A DNA stretch of 20,870 bases from Deferrisomatales bacterium. GTDB lineage: Bacteria; Desulfobacterota; Deferrisomatia; Deferrisomatales; JACRMM01. A model generated the notes under the pieces. That model made no database searches, was not told the origin of the DNA, and was given only the letters and a program-made list of their open reading frames with translations. Shown here piece after piece: positions 6,913 to 19,490 of the stretch (its first letter is position 1; the number at the start of each line of letters is the position of its first letter). The translations under genes and the position numbers were made by a program. The stretch is taken from positions 1 to 20,870 of the forward strand of contig JAWSUI010000059.1 of the NCBI GenBank assembly GCA_033551855.1. Direction: 5' to 3'.

Positions 6913-7707
6913 TCAGCTCCCGGGGGGGCCGCTCTCGACCCGCTCGATCCCCGTGCATCGCCCCGAGGCCGTGTCGGCCGAGACCACCACGCCACACACC
7001 GTTGCCTCCCCCTCCGCCACGGCGTGCCCCCGGGGGATCCGGCTGCGGAAGCGCTCCACCGCACGGCCAGCAGACACCCCGATGACCGAATCCCTCACCC
7101 CGCTCATCCCCACGTCGGTGATGTAGCCGGTCCCCCCGGGCAAGACGCGGGCATCCGCCGTGGCAACGTGGGTGTGGGTCCCCAGAACGGCTGTGACCCG
7201 GCCGTCCAGGTGCCACCCCATCGCCTGTTTCTCGCTCGTAGCCTCGGCGTGGAAGTCCAGGAGCCGAACCCGAACCTCGGGGGGAAAGCGCGCGAAGACC
7301 GCATCGGCGACCTGGAAGGGGCAGTCCAGCGGATCCATGAAGATCCGACCGGAGAGATTCGCCACGCCGACCGGGACCCCGCCGGCCTCCACCGTGCACC
7401 AGCCCACGCCGGGGGTCCCCGGGGGGTAGTTCGCGGGCCGCAGTAGCCGCGGCAAGTGCTCCAGGCGGCCAAGGATCTCCTTCTTGTCCCAGACGTGGTT
7501 CCCCGTGGTGATCACGTGGACCCCCGCCGAGAAGAGGGCCCGGGCGGTTGCCCCGGTGATGCCCAGCCCGGCGGCCGTATTCTCGCCGTTGGCGACCACC
7601 AGGCCCGCCCCGGTCTCCGCCACCAGGCGGTGCAGGCGCGCCTGCACGGCCCGAAGCCCAGGCTCCCCCACCACGTCACCAAGAAAGAGGATCCGCAGGG
7701 TGCCCAC
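6913..7707 (-). CDS. ymdB: YmdB/TIGR00282-family metallophosphoesterase
   Basis: 264 aa. [66 protein letters not shown]. The start overlaps the rny stop (TAGTG), matching the usual rny-ymdB pair. Confidence 0.94.
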
Positions 7708-9272
7708 TACTTGGCGTACTCCACGGCCCGCGTCTCCCGGATCACGGTGATGCGGATCTGCCCCGGGTAGGAGAGCTCCTTCTCCACCTTCCGGGCAATG
7801 TCCTTGGACAGCAGCACCGCGGTGTCATCGTCGACCCGCTCGTTGTTGACGATGATCCGGATCTCCCGGCCGGCCTGGATGGCGAAGGACTTGGAGACGC
7901 CTTCGAAGGAGTTCGCGATGCGCTCTAGGTCCTCCAAGCGCTTGACGTAGGTCTCGAGCATCTCCCTCCGGGCCCCCGGGCGCGCCGCCGAGAGCGCGTC
8001 GGCCGACTGGACCAGGACCGCGAGGATCGACTCGGGCTTGACGTCGTCGTGGTGGGCCGCCACCGCGTGGACGATCTCCTTGGGCTCACCGTACTTTCGA
8101 CACAGGTCCGCCCCGATCGTGGCGTGGGAGCCCTCGATCTCGTGATCGACCGCCTTGCCGAGATCGTGCAGGAGCCCCGCCCGCTTCGCCTGCTTCACGT
8201 TGATCCCGAGCTCCGACGCCATGATCCCGCAGAGGAACGCCACCTCCAGCGAGTGGTTGAGCACGTTCTGGGCAAAGGACGAGCGGTACTTGAGGCGCCC
8301 CAGCAGGTTGACGACCTCCGGGTGGATGCCGTGCACCCCCACGTCGAAGGTGGCCTGCTCCCCCGCCTCCTTGAGCTCTTGCTCCACCTCCTTGGTGACC
8401 TTCTTCACCACCTCCTCGATCCGGGCGGGGTGGATGCGCCCGTCGCTGATGAGCCGCTCCAGGGAGACCCGGGCGATCTCCCGGCGCACGGGGTTGTAGC
8501 CCGAAAGGAGAACCGTCTCCGGCGTGTCGTCCACGATGAGGTCGATCCCGGTCGCCGCCTCGATGGCCCGGATGTTGCGCCCCTCGCGACCGATGATCCG
8601 GCCCTTCATTTCCTCTCCCGGCAGCTGGACGCTGGTGACCGTTCGCTCGGCCACGTAATCCCCGGCGTAGCGCTGGATGGCCAGGCTGATGATCTCCTTT
8701 GCCTTCTTGTCCGCGACTTTCCTGGCCTCTTCCTCGGCCTCGCGGACCTCCCGGGCTGCGTCGTGGCGCGCCTCGCTCAGGAGAGCCTGTTTCAGCTCCT
8801 CCTTGGCATCCTCCGCGCTCATTCCCGCCACACGCTCCAGCTGCCGGGTGACCTCGGCAACCTTGGCCTCCACCTCCCTCCGCGCCGTCTCCATCTCCAC
8901 GCTGCGCTCGTCGAGACTGTCTTCCCGCTCCTGGAGGCGGGTTTCCCGCTTGTCGAGGTTTTCCTCCTTCTTCTCCAGGTTCCCCTCGCGCTGCTGGACG
9001 CGCTTCTCGACGGCCAGGAGCTCGCTCTTCCTCTCCTCCAGCTCTTTGTCCACCCGGGCCCGCTCGGCAAAGGTCTCTTCCTTCGCCCGGAGAACCACCT
9101 CCTTCTTCAGGATCTCCGCCTCTTTGCGAGCCTCTTCGCGGATGGCGTCCGCCTCGGCCCGGGCGTCCTGGTCCACGGCCCGGGCGCGCCTTCGCGCCGC
9201 CACGAAGCCCGCCGCCAAGGCCACAAGGGCCGCGGCGAGCACCCATACGATCACGATCCCAGTGGAATGCAC
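7707..9272 (-). CDS. rny: Ribonuclease Y (~521 aa)
   Basis: Start GTG 9272 after AAGGAG. It has an N-terminal TM helix, a long coiled coil, a KH domain ([16 protein letters not shown]) and an HD domain ([10 protein letters not shown]), plus [14 protein letters not shown] and the C-terminus [20 protein letters not shown]. Confidence 0.97.
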
Positions 9273-9411
9273 ACGGATCTCCTTTCCCAGCGAAGGACCG
9301 GGCGGCACCGGAGACACGGCCCGGCGGGTCAGGAGACAGGACGAGGAGAACCCGCGCTCCCTGGGGGGCACAGGTTACCGAGAGGTCAGGACGGGATCCG
9401 GAGAGAAAGGG

Positions 9412-9586
9412 ATCCCCCGCTCGTGCCGTGTTCCTAAGGTTCGGTTGAACCTTGCGTGGAAAGGTGGGCGTCCTGTAACCGTTTCACGGGCTCCCCGGAG
9501 GGCATGCCATCCACGGACAGGGAGGACCCCCAGCGTCATGCCGTTGGCTCAACAGCTTCCAGCGGAATCACGCGCACAGCAGGGGA
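9412..9586 (-). ncRNA. ssrS: 6S RNA
   Basis: It lies downstream of zapA, the canonical position. The ~175 nt minus strand folds by eye as a rod: 5' TCCCCTGCT-GTGC-GCGTG-ATTCC pairs with 3' GGAA-CACG-GCAC-GAGCGGGGGA, GTTGAGCC pairs with GGTTCAAC, and TGGGGGTCCT pairs with AGGACGCCCA around a central bubble. Ends are approximate. Confidence 0.88.
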
Positions 9587-9887
9587 ATGGTGTCTTCGTC
9601 GCCGCGAAAGCCTCTGGTATGAGGTTGTCGATGCGCTGGGCAAGACAGGCGTGGCGCTCTTCGAGCTCGGCCTCCCGCTCCCGGGAGGCATCCCTTTCGA
9701 GAAGCAACTCGCTCGCCAGGTCCATGGCGGCCAGAACGGCAATCTGCAGGGTGGCCACCGAGCGAGCCGCTGCCGCGACTTCGCGCATCTTTCGGTCCAC
9801 CAGCTCCGCGACCCGCCGTACGTGCTCGCCTTCCACGTCCGCGCGCAGGGAGTATGGCTGCCCGAAGATCTCTACCTGGTGAACCAT
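9549..9887 (-). CDS. zapA: Cell division protein ZapA (~112 aa including an atypical tail)
   Basis: ATG 9887 overlaps the upstream stop (TGATG). VEIFGQPYSLR...HVRRVAELVDRKMREV...IAVLAAMDLASEL matches the ZapA pattern, and the gene lies upstream of 6S RNA. Confidence 0.92.
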   Translation of the reverse strand: MVHQVEIFGQPYSLRADVEGEHVRRVAELVDRKMREVAAAARSVATLQIAVLAAMDLASELLLERDASREREAELEERHACLAQRIDNLIPEAFAATKTPFPCCARDSAGSC

Positions 9888-10891: not shown

Positions 10892-13438
10892 TCAGTGGGC
10901 GTCGTACCAGTTCGGCCCGCAACCCGCGTCCACGACCAGCGGCACCGCCAACGCGGCTGCACCCTCCATGGCCTCCACCACTGCCCGGCGGGCCTCGTCC
11001 GCCTCGGACGCGGCCACCTCGAACACCAACTCGTCGTGGACCTGCAGGACCAGGTGGGCCTCCGAGCCCCGCTGCCGGTGCGCGCGGTCCGCGCGCACCA
11101 TCGCCCTCTTGATCAGGTCGGCGGCGGTTCCCTGGATGGGGGTGTTGACGGCCATCCTCTCCCCCAGCTCCCGCTGGGCCCGGTTGCGGGACCCGAGCTC
11201 GGGGAGCGGGCGGCGACGGCCAAAGAGAGTCTCCGCGTACCCAAGCCGCCTGGCCGCGTCCACGAGACCCTCGAGATACCTCCGAACGGAGGGAAACTGC
11301 TGGAAGTATGCGTCGATCATGGCCCGGGCCGACGCGCGGGAGATGCCCAGCTGCCGTGCCAGGCCGAAGGGGCTCATCCCGTAGAGGATCCCGAAGTTCA
11401 CCGTCTTGGCCTCGCGGCGCATCCGGTCGTCGACGTCCCTCGGTCGGACCCCGAAGAGGCGGCTCGCCGTCTCCGAGTGGACGTCGCGGCCCGCCCGGAA
11501 GACCGCTACCAGGGCCGGGTCGCCGCTCAGGTGCGCCAGGATCCGCAACTCCACCTGAGAGTAGTCCGCCGACAGGAGCACGCAGCCTTCTTCCGCGACG
11601 AAGGCCTCTCGAATCCTTCGCCCCTCGTCCCCCCGGACCGGGATGTTCTGCAGATTGGGACGGCTCGAGCTCAACCGTCCCGTCGCGGCCACCGTCTGGT
11701 GGAAGCGGGCGTGGATGCGGCCCGTGCCGGGGTCGACCAGGGCGGGCAAGACGTCGATGAAGGCGCTCTTGAGCTTCGAGAGGCTCCGGTGCTCGAGGAC
11801 CACCCGGGGCAGCGGGTGGTCCAGCGCCAGCTCCTCCAGCACCTCGGCGTCCGTGGAGTACCCGGTTGCCGTCTTCTTCACCACGGGCAGCTTGAGCTTG
11901 TCGAAGAGCACCGACGCCAGTTGGCGCGGGCTCTGGGGGTTGAACTCTTCCCCCGCCAGGTCGAAGATCCGCCGTTCGAGCCCCTCGAGCCGGCACTGGT
12001 ACTCCCGGCTCAGCCGGTCGAGAGCCCCGGCGTCCACCTTCACCCCACGAGTCTCCATCCGGCCAAGCACCGGGATCAGGGGGTTTTCGATCTCGCGATA
12101 GAGGCCCAGGAGCCCCGCCGCGGCGAGCTCCCCCTCCAGCCGGGCGGCCAGGCCCAGCGCGGTGCGGGCCCGTTGCACCGCCCTCTCCGCCGGCGTTCCG
12201 CCCGTCCCGGGGTCGAGGCCCCGTTCCCGGGAGAGGTCCTCTTCGGGATAGGCGCGCCGACCCGGGAGGAGAAGGTACGCGGCCACCTCGGTATCCAGGG
12301 CGATGCCCGCGAGCTCCGTCCCCCGCCGGGACAGCTGCGACCAGGCGCCCTGGAGCCGGTGCCCCACCACCGGCACCGAGGGGTCCGCAAGGAGGCTGCT
12401 CCAGGCCTCGGGGATCCCCGCGGCCGGTGCCGCCACGGCGTCGTCCCCCCTCGCCAGCCCCCAGAGCCCGGCGTCCTCCCCGGCGGCCACGGCAAGCCAC
12501 CCGGCAGGAGCTTCGGGGACACCGGCGGCGGCCCCTGCGCCCTCCGAATCGGTTCCCGGCCCCGCCCCGCCGCCCGGATTCTTCCCCTCCTCGTCGAGAC
12601 CCAGCTCACGGAGGAAGCGGTGGAGCTCGAGCTCTCGAAAAAGAGCCGCCAGGGCCGGGCGATCCGGGGATCGCGGCCGCAGATCCTCGGCGCCCGCGTC
12701 GACGGGCACCGCAGTGTCGATGGTCACCAGCTCCCGGTTGCCCAGCGCCCGCTGCCCGTGCTCCCGAAGGGCCTCTCCCCGCTTTCCCTTCACCTCTTCC
12801 GCCCGGGCCACCACCCCCTCGAGGCCGCCGTACGCCGCCACCAGCTTTGCCGCCGTCTTGGGCCCGATCCCGGGCACCCCGGGGATGTTGTCCACCGGGT
12901 CGCCGGTGAGGGCGAGCACGTCCACCACCCTCTCCGGCGGGACGCCGAACCGCTCGGCCACCTCTTCGGGGCCGCTGAACCGGTCCCGCATGGTGTCGAG
13001 CAGCCGGATGCGGGGCCCCACCAACTGGCAGAAGTCCTTGTCCCCCGTGACCAGGGTGACCTCCTCCCCGGCCTCGGCGAGGCGGCGGGCCAGGGTCCCG
13101 AGCACGTCATCGGCTTCCAGGCCGGGCAGGGTCAGCACCGGCACGCCCAAGGCGGCCAGCGCCCGATGGACGTAGGGAATCTGGACAATCAGGTCCTCGG
13201 GGGTCGCCTCCCGGTTGGCCTTGTACTCGGGGAAGAGCCGATGGCGGGCGGTGGGCCCCGGCGGGTCGAACACCACCGCCAGGCCCTCGGGGGCGTGCTC
13301 CCGGAGGACCCGGAAGATCATGGAGAGGAAGCCGTAGACGACGTGGGTTGGAAGACCGGCCGCGGTCCGGAAGCCCTGGAGGGCGTGGTAGGCGCGGTAG
13401 AGCAGGTTCGTGCCGTCGATCAGGAAGTACCTCGCCAT
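10892..13438 (-). CDS. polA: DNA polymerase I (~848 aa)
   Basis: ATG 13438 (or GTG 13447). 5'-3' exonuclease motifs LIDGTNLLYRAYHA, YKANR, EADDVLGTL and DNIPGVPGIGPKTA. Polymerase motifs TGRLSSSRPNLQNIP, SADYSQVELRILAH, RREAKTVNFGILYG and LQVHDELVFE. Confidence 0.98.
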   Translation of the reverse strand: MARYFLIDGTNLLYRAYHALQGFRTAAGLPTHVVYGFLSMIFRVLREHAPEGLAVVFDPPGPTARHRLFPEYKANREATPEDLIVQIPYVHRALAALGVPVLTLPGLEADDVLGTLARRLAEAGEEVTLVTGDKDFCQLVGPRIRLLDTMRDRFSGPEEVAERFGVPPERVVDVLALTGDPVDNIPGVPGIGPKTAAKLVAAYGGLEGVVARAEEVKGKRGEALREHGQRALGNRELVTIDTAVPVDAGAEDLRPRSPDRPALAALFRELELHRFLRELGLDEEGKNPGGGAGPGTDSEGAGAAAGVPEAPAGWLAVAAGEDAGLWGLARGDDAVAAPAAGIPEAWSSLLADPSVPVVGHRLQGAWSQLSRRGTELAGIALDTEVAAYLLLPGRRAYPEEDLSRERGLDPGTGGTPAERAVQRARTALGLAARLEGELAAAGLLGLYREIENPLIPVLGRMETRGVKVDAGALDRLSREYQCRLEGLERRIFDLAGEEFNPQSPRQLASVLFDKLKLPVVKKTATGYSTDAEVLEELALDHPLPRVVLEHRSLSKLKSAFIDVLPALVDPGTGRIHARFHQTVAATGRLSSSRPNLQNIPVRGDEGRRIREAFVAEEGCVLLSADYSQVELRILAHLSGDPALVAVFRAGRDVHSETASRLFGVRPRDVDDRMRREAKTVNFGILYGMSPFGLARQLGISRASARAMIDAYFQQFPSVRRYLEGLVDAARRLGYAETLFGRRRPLPELGSRNRAQRELGERMAVNTPIQGTAADLIKRAMVRADRAHRQRGSEAHLVLQVHDELVFEVAASEADEARRAVVEAMEGAAALAVPLVVDAGCGPNWYDAH

Positions 13439-13537
13439 CGGGCTCACTCCCCCCGGGAGGCCGGTGCCGCCGGCCCGTCGGCGGAACGTCTCTGCGAGGG
13501 CATGTGGCTCCTCCCCTCCCGCCGCGGGGCCGGTGGG

Positions 13538-14512
13538 TCAGCTCTGGAGCACTCGGGCCGCCTCGGGGGCGAAGTAGGTGAGGATCAGGTCCGCCCCAGC
13601 CCGCTTGATCGAGAGCAGGCTCTCCATCATGAGCCCCTGGCCGTCCCCCCACCCCAGTCGCTCCATCGCCTTGACCATGGCGTACTCGCCGCTCACGTTG
13701 TAGGCCGCCGTGGGCAGACCGAAGGTATCCTTTACGCGGCGAATCACGTCCAGGTAGGGCAGGGCCGGCTTCACCATGACGATGTCCGCCCCTTCCCCCA
13801 CGTCCAGCTCCACCTCCCGCAGGGCCTCGCCGCCGTTGGCGGGGTCCATCTGGTAGGAGCGACGGTCCCCGAAGCGGGGGGGCGACTCGGCAGCCTCCCG
13901 GAAGGGCCCGTAGAAGGTGCTCGCGAACTTTGCGGCGTAGGCCATGATGGGTACCCCGGAGAACCCTTCGGTGTCCAGCGCCGTGCGCAGTGCCGCCACC
14001 CGCCCGTCCATCATGTCGGAGGGCGCCACCACGTCCGCCCCTGCACGGGCATGGGAGACCGCCTCCCGGGCCAGGAGCTCGAGGGTGGGGTCGTTGGCCA
14101 CGTCACCGCCTTCGATGACTCCGCAGTGGCCGTGGTCGGTGTACTCGCACAGGCACACGTCGGTGATCACGCACAGGTCGGGGAGCGCATCCTTCAGAGC
14201 CTGGACGGCACGCTGCACGATGCCGTCATCGGCGTACGCCCCAGACCCCAGCGGGTCTTTGCGGTCCGGGATTCCGAAGAGGATCACCGCCGGGACCCCG
14301 AGCCCCCACGCGGCGCGGGCCTCCCCCACGGCCTCGTCCACGGACAACTGGAACTGACCGGGCATGCTCCCGATGGGTTTCCTCACACCGGAGCCCTCCC
14401 GGACGAAGAGGGGGTAGATGAAGTCGGAGGGGGAGAGGGAGGTCTCCCGCACCATGCGGCGCAGGGTCTCGTTGCGGCGGAGCCGCCGCAGGCGGAGGGC
14501 GGGGAAGGGCAT
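13538..14512 (-). CDS. hemB: Porphobilinogen synthase (ALA dehydratase), Cys-rich Zn-site type
   Basis: 324 aa. [67 protein letters not shown]. Confidence 0.98.
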
Positions 14513-14523
14513 GGGATCCTCGG

Positions 14524-14565
14524 CAGTTGTGTGTTTCCAGTGATCGGTGCTGTGTGATGCGTGAT
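14524..14565. repeat. Degenerate 7-bp tandem repeat upstream of hemB
   Basis: CAGTTGT GTGTTTC CAGTGAT CGGTGCT GTGTGAT GCGTGAT; consensus NNGTGAT, best conserved in the last four units. Confidence 0.55.
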
Positions 14566-14591
14566 CAGCCGTCCGGGGCGATCGACCGCCG

Positions 14592-14915
14592 TCACCCGTA
14601 CCGGTAGCAGATCCCCATCCCCCCCATGGGGTAGCGCCAGGTGATGTTCCCGTGGGGGCAGACCAAGCGGCAGGTGCCGCACTCGAGGCAGTTCTCGAAG
14701 CGGATCGTCACCCGGCCCTCCTCGTCGCTCCACCGGTAGGTCTCCGCCGGGCAGGTGACCACACAATCCCGGCCCTCGCACCCAGCGCACCGCAGGGGAT
14801 CGGCGAGCCCCAGGTGGGAGACCGCGTCGGGCCGCGTCTCGTCCGCGAAGAGGCGCTCCTCCACCGTCACCCGCTTCCCCGCGGGCGGAACGGCCCGCTC
14901 GGCGTCACCGCTCAC
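14592..14915 (-). CDS. fixX: FixX-family ferredoxin-like protein (107 aa)
   Basis: GTG after AGGAGG. Cys motifs [15 protein letters not shown] and [12 protein letters not shown]. The C-terminus [15 protein letters not shown] is FixX-typical, and the gene follows fixC. Confidence 0.9.
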
Positions 14916-14950
14916 GACCCCCTCCTGTAAAGAAACTCACCGTCCTTGAA

Positions 14951-14987
14951 TCCCCTCTCCCACCCGGAGAGGGGCCTGGGGTGAGGG
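14951..14987 (-). repeat. REP/BoxC-like palindromic element
   Basis: The minus strand reads CCCTCACCCCAGGCCCCTCTCCGGGTGGGAGAGGGGA, with a perfect 9-bp stem CCCCTCTCC (14952-14960) / GGAGAGGGG (14966-14974). Confidence 0.7.
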
Positions 14988-15048
14988 CGACCGGCCCGCG
15001 ACCGGTCAGGGTTTCATCCCTTGGGGCGACCCGAAGGTCATGGGCAAC

Positions 15049-16425
15049 TCACCAGTTCTTCGCCAGGTACTCCAGGATCCGGTCGGTCTTGCCGTACCCG
15101 AGCACCCGCAGGGCGTTTCGCAGCTGCACCCCGGTGGCGGCGAAGGGCAGGATCCCGACCCTGCGCTGGAAGAGCTCCCAGAGCTCTCCGCCCCTCTCGG
15201 AGCGGGGGGTGCCCCCCACCCGCAGCAGGGCCTCCGCCGCCGCGGCCAGGGCCCCGGGCCAGCGGGAGAAGACGTGGGGGTTTGCCTCCACGAACCGCGG
15301 CCAGTCTCGGTAGTGCTCCATGTCTCGCAGGACGAAGCTGTCCTCAAGGAACCGCCGGTAACAGGAGAGGGTGGCAGCCGAGAAGTCCTTTGCGGCGTGG
15401 GCCGCGAGGGCCGCCCGGCCGGCCATCACCCCGGAGGCCATGGCGTAGTTGGAGCCCTCGTGGTGGGGCGACGTGCTCACCAGGCCGGCCGCGTCCCCCG
15501 CCAGGAGGAAGCCGTCCCGATACAGGAGGGGCAGCCGGTCGTACCCGGTCTCCGGGATCAGGTGCGCGCCGTACTCCAGTAGCTCGGCCCCCTCGAGAAA
15601 TGGTGCCACTGCCGGGTGGGCCTTGAATCGGTCCAGGATCTCCACCGGGCTGAGCCGTCCCTCGGCCAGATCCGAGGGGAAGACGACCACACCCACCGAG
15701 AGGCTCTCCCGGTTCGTGTAGAGGAACCCCGACCCCCGAAGGCCCGCCGTTGCCTCCCCCACGTACTCCCAGGCCGAGCCCTGATCCCCCCGGAGGCCGA
15801 AACGCTCCTCGATCCGCTCCCGGGGCAGCCCCAGGACCTCCTTCACCCCCAGGGCCGCCCGAGCACCCGACGGCTCGGCCCGCATGCCTTCGGCCTCCGC
15901 AAGAAGCGAGACGGCGCCATCGGCCGCGATCACCACCGGTGCGGTCAGGCGTCCGCCCTCGGGGGCCTCCCCCTCGGGCATGCGCACCTGCACCCCAACG
16001 ACCCGGCCACCCTCGTCTTTGAGGGTGCGGTCCACTACGACGCCGGTGACGAGCTCCACCCCCTCGGCCTCCGCGCGGGCCGCCAACCAACGGTCGAAGC
16101 GGGATCGCAGAACCGTGTAGCTGTGGTTGTGGGGGGGGAGGTCCCAGGCCTGGGTCCGAAAGGAGACAGCGGTTTCGGCGCCTTCCGCGAGGACCGACAG
16201 CCCCTTCTTCACCACGTGGCGCTCCAGGGGAGCGCCACCCTCGGCGAAGCCGGGCACCAGCTCGGCGAGGACGTCGGTGTAGAAGACACCGCCCATGAGG
16301 CTCTTCGACCCGGGGTACGGGCCCCGTTCCAGGAGCCCCACCCGAAGACCCCCTCGTGCCATGGCGAGGGCGGCGCTCGCCCCCGCCGGCCCGGCGCCGA
16401 CGACGATGGCGTCGAAGTCGCTCAC
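15049..16425 (-). CDS. fixC: FixC-family FAD-dependent oxidoreductase (ETF:quinone oxidoreductase-like, ~458 aa)
   Basis: GTG 16425 overlaps the hemY stop (GTGA). Motifs: FDAIVVGAGPAG, ERGPYPGSKSLMGG, YTVLRSRFDRWLA, VIAADG, ALGVKEV..LP.ERIEERF, GFLYTNRESLSVG, LEYGAHLIPE, AGDAAG, EGSNYAMASG. Confidence 0.88.
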   Translation of the reverse strand: MSDFDAIVVGAGPAGASAALAMARGGLRVGLLERGPYPGSKSLMGGVFYTDVLAELVPGFAEGGAPLERHVVKKGLSVLAEGAETAVSFRTQAWDLPPHNHSYTVLRSRFDRWLAARAEAEGVELVTGVVVDRTLKDEGGRVVGVQVRMPEGEAPEGGRLTAPVVIAADGAVSLLAEAEGMRAEPSGARAALGVKEVLGLPRERIEERFGLRGDQGSAWEYVGEATAGLRGSGFLYTNRESLSVGVVVFPSDLAEGRLSPVEILDRFKAHPAVAPFLEGAELLEYGAHLIPETGYDRLPLLYRDGFLLAGDAAGLVSTSPHHEGSNYAMASGVMAGRAALAAHAAKDFSAATLSCYRRFLEDSFVLRDMEHYRDWPRFVEANPHVFSRWPGALAAAAEALLRVGGTPRSERGGELWELFQRRVGILPFAATGVQLRNALRVLGYGKTDRILEYLAKNW

Positions 16426-17852
16426 GGCGAACCTCCCCCGGCGCCGCCGGGCCCGCTGCTCAGGGCCTCGAGCACCCGCGGGCCCAGGACCGCCCCGTGG
16501 GCGGTGCAGTCGTTGATGCCGATGCCATAGTAGGCATTGCCGCCCAGGAACAGGCCGCCCAGGGCGCCGACCCTGCCCTCCACCTCCTGCAGCCGGGCGT
16601 CGTGCCCGACCACGTACTGGGGGATCGCCCGGGGCCAACGGACCACCTTCACGAAGGTGGGAGCGGCCCGAATGCCGAGGGTCCAGGCAAGCTCATCCCT
16701 CACGACCTGGAGCAACTCCTCGTCGCCCAGGCCCACGAGCTCCGGATTCCGGGCGCCGCCCAGGATCTGGGTCAGGAGCACGCCCCCCTTCGGGGCCCGC
16801 CGGGCAAAGATCGAGGAGCTCCAGAGGGAGCCCAGGATCTTCCGGCCCTCCGAGGAGGGGATCAGGAAGCCGAACCCGTCCAGGGGGTGGGACACGTCCT
16901 CCCGGCGGAAGCCGGTGCACACCACGGCCGCCGGAACGTACGGGATCGCGTAGAGGCGATCGGCGAGATTCGGGTCCTGGTCGCGCAGAAGCCGCGCCGC
17001 GTCGTAGGCGGGCGTGGCCAGCACCACCGCGGCGGCCTCCAGACGGCTCCCGTCTTCCGTGCGCACCACCCAGCCCCCCTGGGGGCCCCGCTCCAGGGCC
17101 TCGGCCCCTGCCCCGGTGCGCACGCTGCCCTGGGGAAGGGTCCCGGCGAGCTCCGAGACGAGCTCCCCGGCCCCCTCCTGCAGGCTCCACAGCACACCGC
17201 CGGGCCCCGCGGACTGGGGCCCCTTGACCCCCATCGCCTTGGCCATCTTCTGCATGGCCAGCATGCCCTTGAGCAGCCCGCCGAATTGGGCCTCGAGCTG
17301 GGCCACTTTGGGAAAACAGCTCCGCAGGCTCATCACGCTCGGGTCGCCCGCGTAGATTCCTGCGCTCATGGGGTCGATGAGCTTTTCCAAGGCCTCGTCC
17401 CCCAAGCGTCTGCGGACGAAGGCGGCCACCGACTCGTCTTCCCGGCCGCCGCCCTGGGGGAGAAGGAACTCGGCCGCGAGCCGCAGCTTTCCCCGGATGG
17501 AGAGGAGGTCGGAGAGCAGGAAGCTCACCGGATCTTCCGGCAGGGCCTTGAGCTCTCCCCCCGTGAAGACGAAGCGCTTCCGCGCCTCGTCATTGGACCT
17601 GAGGAGCTTCCGATCCGCCGAGAGACGCTTCACCAGGGCGAGGGTGGAGGGCTTGTTGTCGAGGAAGCCGTTGGGGCCGTGCTCGCACAGGAAACCCTGT
17701 TCCCGGGTGGACCGGATCTTCCCGCCGAGCAGGGGCTCCTTCTCCGCAAGGGCCAATTCCAGGGGTACGGAGCGCTTCGCGGCCTCGTCCAGCACAGCCC
17801 GGGCGGCCGCCAGCCCCGACAGGCCGCCCCCTACGATCACGACGCGTCGCAT
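16422..17852 (-). CDS. hemY: HemY-type protoporphyrinogen/coproporphyrinogen oxidase (~476 aa)
   Basis: ATG 17852 after GAGGAG. Motifs: VVIVGGGLSGL, LGGKIRS, EHGPNGFL, AGIYAGDP, GFGFLIP, RWPRAIPQYVVGH, GNAYYGIGINDC. Confidence 0.95.
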   Translation of the reverse strand: MRRVVIVGGGLSGLAAARAVLDEAAKRSVPLELALAEKEPLLGGKIRSTREQGFLCEHGPNGFLDNKPSTLALVKRLSADRKLLRSNDEARKRFVFTGGELKALPEDPVSFLLSDLLSIRGKLRLAAEFLLPQGGGREDESVAAFVRRRLGDEALEKLIDPMSAGIYAGDPSVMSLRSCFPKVAQLEAQFGGLLKGMLAMQKMAKAMGVKGPQSAGPGGVLWSLQEGAGELVSELAGTLPQGSVRTGAGAEALERGPQGGWVVRTEDGSRLEAAAVVLATPAYDAARLLRDQDPNLADRLYAIPYVPAAVVCTGFRREDVSHPLDGFGFLIPSSEGRKILGSLWSSSIFARRAPKGGVLLTQILGGARNPELVGLGDEELLQVVRDELAWTLGIRAAPTFVKVVRWPRAIPQYVVGHDARLQEVEGRVGALGGLFLGGNAYYGIGINDCTAHGAVLGPRVLEALSSGPGGAGGGSP

Positions 17853-17883
17853 CCACGCTCCTCGCTCGGAAAGTGCGGCGGTC

Positions 17884-17913
17884 ACGATACGCGGCGCCCG
17901 CCGGGGCGGTCAA
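17884..17913 (-). promoter_or_regulatory. Putative sigma70 promoter for hemY-fixC-fixX-hemB
   Basis: The minus strand reads TTGACC-18 nt-TATCGT, about 30 nt upstream of the hemY ATG. Confidence 0.6.
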
Positions 17914-17927
17914 GGGGGTTGCCCCCT

Positions 17928-18129
17928 GGATCCACCGCCTGGCAAGTGCTCGGGGTCGGGGAGCCCCGCCGCTCCGCCCCTCAGTCCGCGATATCCGGAC
18001 GAGGCATTGGGGAGGAAGCGGGTCCGCCCAGCCTCACCCGGTTCTGCGGGCTTGGGCCCATCGGTCGAGGCGGTTCGGGGCGGCGCTCCACGGCTCCCCG
18101 ACCCCGCCCAAGAGCCTGACGGTCGATTC
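17928..18129 (-). repeat. Dispersed intergenic repeat, copy 2 (inverted orientation)
   Basis: The reverse complement reads ...GGGGTCGGGGAGCC...CCGCCTCGACCGA...ACCGGG...CGCGGAC...GGAGCGGCGGGGCTCCCCGACCCCGAGC...CGGTGGATCC, collinear with copy 3. It has a perfect 15-bp internal inverted repeat at 17951-17965 / 18092-18106. Confidence 0.7.
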
Positions 18130-18237
18130 TGGCCCCTGGATTCAACGACGTCCGGGGCCGCGGGGCCGAAAGCACCTGCGCCCCACTGCGCCATCCGCGA
18201 CGCTCCGAGCCGGTGCCCCCGGGGGTAGGGGGCGCGG

Positions 18238-19158
18238 TCAGGGTTCCCGGCAGAGGCTGCGGGCCACACGCGCACCGAGCCCCGCGTTGGCGACCAGGAG
18301 TGCCCGGTTCGCCTCGACGGTCGCCCCGCCCGAGGCGTGGGCCAGCGCGGAGAGAAGGGCCGGGGTGACTCCCGGCCCGGAGAGACCGCTCCCTCCGGCC
18401 GCTGCCAGTGACGACGCCAAGCTGCGCTCCACGGCCTCCCGGGGCACGGCCACCCCCGCCGGAGGCGGGTTGGCGAGGAGCACCGCCTGGGGCAGCCCCA
18501 AGGCATCTCGGCACCGCACCACACGGGCCGCTTCCTCGGGGGTGTCCGCCCGGTGACGCAGGCCCAGACCGGACGACGTGCTGACGAAGGCCGGAAGCTC
18601 GTCCGTTCGATAGCCCACCACGCAGACGCCCAGCGCCTCCAGGAGCTGCAGGGTCTTGGGCAGGTCGAGGATGACCTTGGCCCCGGAGCAGACTACGCAC
18701 CCGCCGAAGCGGGCCAGGGCGCCCAGATCACCGGAAATGTCGAAGCTCGTCCCGCCGCCCCGGTGGACTCCCCCGATGCCGCCCGTCGCGAAGACCCGGA
18801 TCCCTGCCCACCGGCAAGCCCACAGGGTGGCGGCGACCGTAGTGCCCGCGTCGGCACCCCGGGCCGCCAAGGCGGGGAGGTCGGCGACCCCGGCCTTGCA
18901 CGCGCTTTCCTCCCCCGCCAGGGTTTCGGCCTCGGCCTCTCCGAGCCCGACCCGCAGGACACCCCCCAGGACGGCAACGGCCGCAGGCACCGCCCCTGCG
19001 GCGCGCACCGCGTCCTCCATCGCCCGGAAGGTCTCGAGGTTGGCGGGCCTGGGGAGCCCATGGGTCAGGAAGGCCGTCTCCAAGGCCACCACCGGGCGGC
19101 CGAGAGCCAGCGCCTCGGCCACGGAAGGCTTGGCGCACGGCGAAGCGGGAGCGGTCAC
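18238..19158 (-). CDS. psuG: Pseudouridine-5'-phosphate glycosidase (PsuG/IndA family, ~306 aa)
   Basis: Start reassigned to GTG 19158 after GGAGGAG. Motifs: PVVALETAFLTHGLPRPAN, GTTVAAT, FATGGIGGVHRG, DISGDL, CSGAKVILDLPKTL, LPAF, VTPALL. Confidence 0.9.
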   Translation of the reverse strand: MTAPASPCAKPSVAEALALGRPVVALETAFLTHGLPRPANLETFRAMEDAVRAAGAVPAAVAVLGGVLRVGLGEAEAETLAGEESACKAGVADLPALAARGADAGTTVAATLWACRWAGIRVFATGGIGGVHRGGGTSFDISGDLGALARFGGCVVCSGAKVILDLPKTLQLLEALGVCVVGYRTDELPAFVSTSSGLGLRHRADTPEEAARVVRCRDALGLPQAVLLANPPPAGVAVPREAVERSLASSLAAAGGSGLSGPGVTPALLSALAHASGGATVEANRALLVANAGLGARVARSLCREP

Positions 19159-19261
19159 GGCATCTCCTCCGGGATGGGGTGCACGGGACCCGGCGAAGGG
19201 TAGCAGAACCCCGGGTCGCCCGGGAGGTCGGGCGGTCGGACGGTCGGGGGCCCGGGAATCA

Positions 19262-19431
19262 AGCTCCACCCGTTTTTCGGGCCGGACCGGGGAGCCTCGG
19301 AGACACGTACCGGCTCGACCGACCCGCCGAGCCCGGCGCACCGGGACCCCGGGGGACACCCCCTCGAAGGGCCGCGGACGCCGGGGGGAGCGGAGGGGCT
19401 CCCCGGATCCGAGCGCGTGTCCGGTAGATCC
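19262..19431 (+). repeat. Dispersed intergenic repeat, copy 3
   Basis: 19310-19359 matches 20821-20870 at 43/50 positions without gaps. Internal inverted repeat CCGGGGAGCC (19287-19296) / GGCTCCCCGG (19397-19406). Confidence 0.8.
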
Positions 19432-19434
19432 TGC

Positions 19435-19490
19435 GGAATTCCACCGTTGGGAATTCCACCCGTGCTCCCCTGCGCCGGCCATGGTAGCAT
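19435..19490 (+). promoter_or_regulatory. Candidate mtnA promoter region: tandem GGAATTCCACC boxes plus an extended -10
   Basis: GGAATTCCACC occurs at 19435-19445 and 19450-19460. TGgTAGCAT lies at 19482-19490, about 40 nt before the mtnA ATG. The -35 (GTGCTC) is weak. Confidence 0.45.

Follow-up and report, generated by a model that had tools for sequence, protein, structure and literature searches.

The window analysed here, the complete 20,870 nucleotides of contig JAWSUI010000059.1 of a Deferrisomatales bacterium (assembly GCA_033551855.1), carries a gene for a HemY-type porphyrinogen oxidase that runs into genes for a FixC-like flavoprotein and a FixX-like ferredoxin, and further downstream into hemB. 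In our numbering the contig is C59 of a genome (G000) of 4.24 Mb in 132 contigs, which is 100% complete according to marker genes; the G+C content of the window is around 70%. The comparative sequence analysis given below supports well a functional coupling of hemY with a special subfamily of FixCX, and makes it plausible that electrons travel from HemY via FixX and FixC to quinone. An original prediction, made from the sequence alone, had read the order promoter-hemY-fixC-fixX-hemB on one strand; profile matches and coordinates confirmed this order, with all elements on the minus strand. The features of the locus are the following.

17884-17913, minus strand: sigma-70-like promoter match (TTGACC-18 nt-TATCGT) 5' of hemY, a consensus match only
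16422-17852, minus strand: hemY, HemY-type porphyrinogen oxidase, 476 amino acids (TIGR00562, 326.5 bits; PF01593, 181 bits)
16422-16425, minus strand: GTGA, in which the stop of hemY overlaps the start of fixC, read from the sequence
15049-16425, minus strand: fixC-like gene, EtfC-like quinone reductase with flavin adenine dinucleotide (FAD), 458 amino acids, hemY-linked subfamily (profiles, 7KOE_C, own clade)
15052-15108, minus strand: clade-specific C-terminal extension of FixC, residues 440-458, ...LGYGKTDRILEYLAKNW (alignment)
14916-15048, minus strand: spacer of 133 nt in the fixC-fixX gap, one of the genome-wide copies of a hairpin-containing intergenic repeat (copies 87-94% identical)
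14592-14915, minus strand: fixX-like gene, EtfX-like ferredoxin, 107 amino acids (PF05187, 7KOE_D, two cluster motifs)
13538-14512, minus strand: hemB, porphobilinogen synthase, 324 amino acids (PF00490, 496 bits; NF006762, 504 bits)

The most likely start of hemY is the ATG at 17852, which is preceded by GAGGAG; the GTG at 17885 was considered as well and is disfavoured against it. The promoter match is the sole sigma-70-like match in the region 13300-18300, where one was found and 0.1 was expected from shuffled sequences. As to co-transcription, no RNA data set covering the stretch was listed; one DNA run contains it and may stem from the source sample. The overlap of the hemY TGA with the fixC GTG is present as originally read, the shared bases being ...CCGTGAGC... 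at 16422-16425, and the window indeed holds no fixA or fixB: there was no match to electron transfer flavoprotein (ETF) models on the contig, and tblastn searches with EtfA and EtfB came back empty. One correction concerns fixC and fixX, which lie 133 nt apart (14916-15048). The repeat to which the spacer between them belongs is dispersed over this genome in more than 20 copies, measures about 120 nt and contains a GC-rich hairpin (further copies lie, among others, at C11:46757-46878, between an AhbD-like gene and hemE, at C56:14335-14455, and on C31 and C8). Since most relatives have fixC and fixX overlapping or almost adjoining, the spacer looks inserted. A role of the spacer as regulatory RNA or terminator was rejected on account of its fold z-score (-1.84), the lack of a terminator-like site and its dispersed nature.

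The match of HemY to TIGR00562 exceeds the cut-off of 97.85 bits and spans residues 12-465 of the 487-residue open reading frame. The FAD-binding motif GxGxxG is located at the N-terminus, with G8, G10 and G13 invariant in 34 sequences. The best solved relative is the protoporphyrinogen oxidase of Myxococcus xanthus (2IVD, a PgoX; 289 bits), and the Bacillus subtilis enzyme 3I6D scores 232 bits. A separate observation concerns the protein P0001 (866 amino acids, from one metagenome contig), in which a HemY (TIGR00562, 332 bits) is fused to a radical SAM/SPASM protein of the TIGR04053 family; the radical-SAM part scores 455 bits on TIGR04053, which is over the cut-off, and 287 bits on AhbD.

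FixC is a homologue of EtfC. Its FAD-binding Rossmann fold has G10 and G12 invariant, the quinone-binding domain ETFQO_UQ-bd (PF21162) is matched with 33.9 bits against a cut-off of 27.7, and the best solved relative is 7KOE_C, the EtfC of Thermotoga maritima (277 bits, residues 3-419), followed by the ETF:quinone oxidoreductase (ETF-QO) 2GMH with 103 bits. The protein remains below the NCBIfam cut-offs for FixC (NF007450, 335.9 bits versus 466; NF007542, 313 bits versus 610), and the ETF-linked FixC paralogs of the same genome are likewise under the cut-off (413.9 and 344.6 bits). The domain match and a MenG/UbiE methyltransferase encoded in the genome (234.9 bits) are the indications of menaquinone or ubiquinone as the putative acceptor. 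FixX matches PF05187 (34.5 bits, cut-off 24), NF011993 (41.1 bits, under the cut-off of 166) and 7KOE_D (90 bits, residues 18-107). It has the motifs CxxCxxxxCxxxC and CxxCxxCxxxC, whose eight cysteines (C43, C46, C51, C55, C76, C79, C82 and C86) suffice for two [4Fe-4S] clusters and are invariant or at least 90% conserved among 39 sequences. This clear homology to EtfC and EtfX is the starting point of the main rival explanation, in which FixCX is an ordinary ETF:menaquinone oxidoreductase for an EtfAB pair encoded elsewhere, for instance at the C3 locus described below, and in which its position between hemY and hemB is an inherited gene order without functional meaning. We consider this unlikely, for reasons that become apparent from the distribution of the linkage.

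The linkage extends beyond the genome in which it was first noticed, so that a confinement to this genome, one of the refuting conditions of the original prediction, does not apply. We searched 21 species genomes, which make up the order and at the same time the whole class among the genomes covered, and told FixC orthologs from paralogs by identity. All 21 have an ortholog (56-85% identity, the paralogs having at most 46%), and 20 have HemY, the one without it being 81% complete. The gene hemY adjoins fixC in 16 of the 21. In the other five (G006, G008, G011, G012 and G016) a contig end coincides with the start of the FixC match or is no more than about 250 nt away from it, and adjacency can therefore not be judged; no case of hemY and fixC lying apart on long contigs was found in the order. 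The complete arrangement hemY-fixC-fixX-hemB occurs in 13 genomes, and seven cut contigs agree with it. Among the 14 genomes with both open reading frames at the hemY/fixC junction, the genes overlap by 4 nt in six, by 8 nt in one and by 1 nt in one, abut in two, and are separated by 2 or 15 nt in two and by 178 nt in two, so that 12 of the 14 junctions are tight (overlapping, or with no more than 15 nt between the genes). The preservation of the start/stop overlap in four families speaks against a gene order that was merely inherited.

Not one ETF gene was found in any of the 22 hemY-linked loci. This bears on a second alternative, in which HemY and FixCX act in one pathway without touching each other and an ETF encoded elsewhere shuttles the electrons of HemY to FixCX. 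Known FixCX/EtfCX modules do draw their electrons from EtfAB, as described in the part of PMC10734219 dealing with them, and the window's genome offers six ETF pairs. Against this shuttle stand the ETF-free surroundings of the hemY-linked modules and the clade-specific changes in FixC, which suggest a changed partner. Moreover, we know of no HemY-type enzyme that reduces an ETF, and altogether we consider the shuttle improbable.

Those changes in FixC became clear from phylogeny and alignment. Trees were inferred by quick IQ-TREE searches with support from the Shimodaira-Hasegawa-like approximate likelihood ratio test (SH-aLRT) and no bootstraps; partial or frameshifted rows (L014, L020, L022, L041 and L049) and a duplicate (L070) were left out. 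In a tree of 54 FixCs the 17 hemY-linked sequences of the order form one clade with an SH-aLRT of 100, and both FixC paralogs of the window's genome fall outside of it. Hence the hemY-linked FixCs constitute a clade of their own, apart from the etfAB-linked ones, which was a check that the original prediction had named. When 19 metagenome rows were added (73 rows in total), the 17 and two FixCs of a second lineage, treated below, were separated as one clade from the 54 others (SH-aLRT 99.2). The linked HemYs (15 and 2) also group against 19 unlinked ones, with an SH-aLRT of 92, which is below the star mark of the tool. Five HemY positions split 16 linked from 19 unlinked sequences, an example being T361, where all 19 unlinked sequences have Arg. 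These were considered as signature residues and dropped: in O2-using enzymes of known structure the position of T361 is occupied by Ser, Arg or Thr, and nothing was drawn from it.

The hemY-linked FixCs are also longer (456-480 residues) than the others (425-437), the difference being an insertion of about seven residues and a C-terminal extension. The latter comprises some 19 residues that end in (R/K)NW; of the alignment rows shown, the 13 hemY-linked ones all have it and the 13 others all lack it. The FixC of the window ends in ...DRILEYLAKNW and P0002, of the second lineage, in ...DKMAEIFRRNW, and among the 150 best FixC representatives only two have an (R/K)NW C-terminus. In an AlphaFold2 model of the window's FixC (mean predicted local distance difference test, pLDDT, 90.2) the extension appears as a helix at the very end of the chain (446-457), which follows a flexible linker and is placed with low confidence (pLDDT about 52-54); a part that docks onto another component might look like this. 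The separate clade with its own extension counts against an ordinary ETF:quinone oxidoreductase.

The reach of the association beyond the order was assessed in 401 genomes sampled evenly from the phylum. FixC matches at a threshold of E <=1e-60 were obtained in 93 (14 in the order and 79 outside, the best outside match being 50% identical) and HemY matches in 149 (13 in the order and 136 outside). Among the matches listed, FixC and HemY were found on the same contig in none of the 30 outside genomes that have both. In 20 hemY loci from outside the order, none of which contained a FixC ortholog, hemH adjoins hemY in ten, seven of these being hemE-hemH-hemY. One such locus, in a different family of the phylum (G123; L098 4837-6045), has hemE-hemH-hemY followed by an overlapping gene for an FAD protein of the geranylgeranyl-reductase family (TIGR02032, 201 bits), which shares 26% identity with the FixC of the window; here HemY may have been paired independently, for a second time, with a member of this flavoprotein superfamily. 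Turning to FixC, etfAB or an acyl-CoA dehydrogenase gene lies close by in 33 of 39 loci without hemY linkage, and neither does so in the other six. The fixC-fixX pairs in L071, L072, L075/L080 and L035/L036 have no ETF or acyl-CoA dehydrogenase gene in the flanks examined, where a molybdopterin oxidoreductase, a LUD/CCG protein with UbiE, and others are encoded instead. A FixCX that lacks an adjacent ETF is thus not unique to the hemY case.

The search for more distant examples uncovered a second lineage. Of 1.84 billion cluster representatives, the one that matches the FixC of the window best over the full length is P0002 (49% identity, 480 amino acids), and a metagenome scan with P0002 returned 56 loci. 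Two of these, L110 (97% identical to P0002) and L111 (78%), encode fixC-fixX-hemY on a single strand and so differ from the window in gene order; the FixCs are 43-49% and the HemYs 50-54% identical to those of the window, the HemY scoring 323 bits on TIGR00562. HemY was not found in the remaining 54 loci, most of which are etfB-etfA-fixC-fixX. The 1.9-kb metagenome contig L156 has 91% DNA identity to L110 over the 3' part of fixC and fixX; an insertion flanked by inverted repeats follows fixX, after which the contig ends, and a linkage to hemY cannot be judged there. A search for the second lineage among the 21 genomes of the class gave only the known orthologs. The second lineage rearranged the genes, yet it retained fixCX beside hemY, which again argues against a position without functional meaning.

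The ETF complement of the genome bears on the same question. The window's genome has 12 ETF matches, on C1, C3, C10, C15, C22 and C43, which form six ETF pairs, and three FixC genes, on C15, C22 and C59, of which the C59 copy stands beside hemY without an ETF. On C15 the setting is acyl-CoA dehydrogenase-etfB-etfA-fixC-fixX. The C22 paralog lies within a mycofactocin cluster (C22:8000-19000, L059) that encodes the MftC radical-SAM maturase, MftF, an OYE-type oxidoreductase and a mycofactocin-coupled short-chain dehydrogenase/reductase, and that also holds a FixX-like open reading frame and mycofactocin-type ETF genes; this composition suggests that at C22 FixCX is the route from a mycofactocin-linked ETF to quinone. 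Of the remaining four ETF pairs, three lie beside a CCG/Fe-S protein, a likely membrane acceptor. Most ETF loci thus bring their own acceptor, be it a CCG/Fe-S protein or FixCX, which counts against an ordinary ETF:quinone role of the C59 copy. The exception is the C3 locus, in which etfBA and an acyl-CoA dehydrogenase gene lack an adjoining acceptor gene, as does the corresponding locus of G009; similarly, the single ETF pair of G011 is without an acceptor on its short contig. In addition, ETF genes are present in 21 of 21 genomes of the order, which leaves room both for transfer via an ETF encoded elsewhere and for a plain ETF-QO role, and the six genomes of family f3 (6/6) hold the hemY-linked FixC only, so that FixCX could be the general ETF:quinone oxidoreductase of that family.

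The heme pathway of the genome provides the metabolic context. The hemH gene is located on C56, and C11:43087-47980 (L060) contains ccsB-hemC-cobA/hemD fusion-AhbD-like radical SAM-hemE. The AhbD-like protein scores 441.6 bits over its full length on TIGR04545, under the cut-off of 500, and judged by its gene content the C11 cluster looks like a coproporphyrin-type route that ends in an anaerobic coproheme decarboxylase. Within the order the AhbD-like gene occurs in 19 of 21 genomes and ChdC in none (0/21). The window's genome also encodes a HemN-family protein (NF006385, 514 bits) and a HemW-like protein whose gene adjoins hrcA. Searches of this genome did not find ChdC, HemF, CgoN (DUF1444) or AhbC, and HemJ (PF03653) was absent from all 31 genomes searched, this one included. 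A Flavodoxin_5 match was dismissed as HemG, since it spans positions 1-87 of the 145 of the profile and is WrbA/flavodoxin-like according to NCBIfam. A full siroheme pathway (alternative heme biosynthesis) was dismissed as well, as AhbC was not found: the highest-scoring candidate, with 193 bits where the cut-off is 650, is none other than the AhbD-like gene. HemG and HemJ, whose lack in the host genomes was part of the survey suggested by the original prediction, were thus not found in this genome, and neither was CgoN. HemY therefore looks like the only porphyrinogen oxidase, and the only step nominally in need of O2, of a pathway that otherwise consists of O2-independent enzymes.

The substrate of HemY would be either coproporphyrinogen III, in a route via AhbD, or protoporphyrinogen IX, in a route via the HemN-family protein. 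The best solved relative is a PgoX, that of M. xanthus; against this stand the AhbD-like gene in the hemCDE cluster, the lack of a ChdC match and the hemE-hemH-hemY clusters of relatives. The HemN-family gene exists as well. As to respiration, the window's genome has a COX1 match of 31.6 bits, under the cut-off, no heme-copper oxidase over the cut-off, and weak matches to cytochrome bd models (61 and 56 bits).

FixCX might alternatively serve some other redox step of tetrapyrrole synthesis, either by accepting or donating the electron of an AhbD- or HemN-like radical-SAM decarboxylase or by an action of FixC on a tetrapyrrole or quinone side chain. The similarity of FixC to the geranylgeranyl-reductase superfamily model TIGR02032 (114.6 bits) is in line with this, as are the wide occurrence of the AhbD-like gene in the order, the true geranylgeranyl-reductase-family gene behind hemE-hemH-hemY in G123, and the existence of a HemY fused to an AhbD-like radical-SAM protein. 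Nevertheless, the linkage is to hemY, while ahbD sits on another contig, and FixC has retained both the quinone-binding domain of ETF-QO and its FixX partner. To our knowledge no reduction step follows uroporphyrinogen in heme b synthesis, and we hold a role of this kind to be improbable.

A direct contact between HemY and FixCX was addressed by one three-chain structure prediction with FixC 3-458, FixX 26-107 and HemY 2-463 (chains cut to the size limit), HemY being the scored partner. The interface score ipSAE was 0.57 (runs of 0.58, 0.57 and 0.56) against 0.00 for the best of three controls; the pLDDT of the partner was at least 85 and the runs share at least 87% of the contacts. No solved complex of HemY with EtfC that the model might have memorised was found in sequence searches of the PDB. 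In the calibration, 116 of 157 solved complexes attained the mark, as did 2 of 215 mismatched pairs, and scores of up to 0.60 came from only 18 of the 157 solved complexes and from both mismatches; a pass in this weak band is more often wrong than right unless the pairing was likely beforehand, and the calibration applies only roughly here because own alignments and three chains were used. The HemY-FixC-FixX complex whose modelling the original prediction had suggested thereby receives weak support, without an interface being specified, and the score tells to the same limited extent against an ordinary ETF-QO role.

We propose that hemY-fixC-fixX encodes a porphyrinogen:menaquinone oxidoreductase, put together from two parts that are each known, in which a FixCX module dedicated to HemY re-oxidises this enzyme in place of O2, and assign this a probability of about 0.5. 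HemY, through its FAD, would remove six electrons from coproporphyrinogen III or protoporphyrinogen IX; these would pass from the HemY-FAD to the two [4Fe-4S] clusters of FixX, on to the FAD of FixC and finally to menaquinone, which would make porphyrinogen oxidation independent of O2. The C-terminal helix that only this subfamily of FixC has could be the docking element, at the place where an ETF-linked FixCX binds EtfAB. A further step, somewhat more tentative, would be that HemY, FixX and FixC form a stable membrane-associated complex and thereby a fourth, previously undescribed kind of O2-independent porphyrinogen dehydrogenase, in which EtfCX has exchanged its ETF donor for a biosynthetic flavoenzyme and delivers six electrons per porphyrin to the menaquinone pool.

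Several observations weigh against this proposal. The case has been built on comparative genomics and one structure prediction, and the prediction scores in the weak band. ETF genes throughout the order, the C3-type loci without an acceptor and family f3 with its single FixC have been mentioned. In the single-contig genome G010 a transposase gene lies between fixC and fixX; this IS630-like DDE_3 element (L067 5115-6152), on the opposite strand, splits the operon. The two lineages may be related organisms, in which case the shared linkage may reflect one ancestral event. A search for HemY-FixC fusions among proteins of more than 834 residues gave one protein, the fusion of HemY with a radical-SAM protein, and no such fusion, which counts weakly. 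Finally, the 136 HemY-bearing genomes of the phylum outside the order manage without the module, and a COX1-family match over the cut-off, which may be a cbb3-type oxidase or a nitric oxide reductase, exists in 14 of the 21 genomes of the order, so that this mostly anaerobic lineage is not uniformly free of enzymes that reduce O2 or nitric oxide. The enrichment in anaerobes that the original prediction had suggested to look for is not evident from these data. Of its overall reading, the linkage and the separate clade have stood, and HemG, HemJ and CgoN were not found; the electron-transfer mechanism, with the direction of flow, the quinone acceptor and the independence from O2, is what we infer.

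Two other elements of the window may be recorded. A 6S RNA (RF00013, scoring 79 bits where the gathering score is 46.4) is located at 9410-9588 on the minus strand, just upstream of an RNase Y gene (7707-9371). An open reading frame for a pseudouridine-5'-phosphate glycosidase-like protein (PF04227, 331 bits, residues 121-408) occupies 18238-19482, also on the minus strand; its true start is probably further downstream, because the first ATG gives around 120 extra N-terminal residues.

The proposed function would address a question that has been raised in the literature. Many anaerobes, strict or facultative, possess HemY-type oxidases; in the phylum sample 149 of 401 genomes hold one. Obligately anaerobic green sulfur bacteria possess only a HemY-type enzyme, according to the relevant part of the paper of Kobayashi et al. 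(PMC4231631). For Staphylococcus aureus and other Firmicutes, CgoX/HemY is needed for anaerobic heme synthesis, and the pertinent section of PMC6620371 states that its anaerobic electron acceptor is unknown. A history of heme biosynthesis in Chemical Reviews of 2026 (PMC13564367) names CgoN and AhbD, in the portion concerned with them, as anaerobic substitutes and notes that the S. aureus CgoX works anaerobically; no occurrence of the term electron transfer flavoprotein was found in it. A published account of a hemY-linked fixCX was not found either: none of the papers searched names both fixC and hemY, and those that name hemY together with electron transfer flavoprotein seem unrelated by title; one of them, PMC2700814, was checked.

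If true, the proposal would for the first time name, in one lineage, a concrete acceptor for the electrons of a HemY-type enzyme without oxygen. Since only a narrow lineage has the module, the same question would stay unsettled for the Firmicutes or Chlorobi. The proposal would also imply that EtfCX/FixCX modules can be re-targeted from an ETF to another flavoenzyme, and hence invite a wider reading of orphan fixCX annotations. The locus constitutes a specific, clonable candidate of three genes.

Among the systems with the same proposed function, HemG stands out, for which the coupling of protoporphyrinogen oxidation to the quinone pool is established and which thus delivers electrons to the respiratory chain without O2 (corresponding passages in PMC13564367 and PMC4231631). 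The protein is unrelated, being a long-chain flavodoxin with flavin mononucleotide. CgoN (YtpQ/DUF1444) of Priestia megaterium is an O2-independent coproporphyrinogen III oxidase, as stated in the excerpts available from PMC13564367 and PMC10965808. The former describes it as an FAD enzyme from which a menaquinone analogue accepts six electrons, comparable to what is proposed here; CgoN belongs to an unrelated family, acts as a single protein, and its DUF1444 was not found in the window's genome. The anaerobic CgoX/HemY of the Firmicutes is a HemY-type enzyme like the present one, but no partner is known there.

With regard to the FixCX side, ETF-QO (2GMH) has homologous FAD and quinone-binding domains (103 bits), and the C-terminus of FixX matches its 4Fe-4S domain (PF05187). 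ETF-QO is a single chain with one cluster, whereas the hemY-linked FixCX consists of two chains with two cluster motifs and has another presumed donor. The closest solved system is the EtfABCX of T. maritima (7KOE), the EtfC and EtfX of which equal FixC and FixX of the Azotobacter FixABCX. There, electrons from EtfAB pass over the two [4Fe-4S] clusters of EtfX and the FAD of EtfC to menaquinone (PMC10734219, in its account of the pathway). The FAD Rossmann motif, the quinone-binding domain and the eight cysteines for two [4Fe-4S] clusters are shared between EtfCX and the hemY-linked FixCX. Unlike EtfCX, the latter has no adjoining etfAB, is coupled to hemY and forms a separate clade, and its FixC falls below the NCBIfam cut-offs and has, besides a short insertion, a conserved additional helix at the C-terminus.

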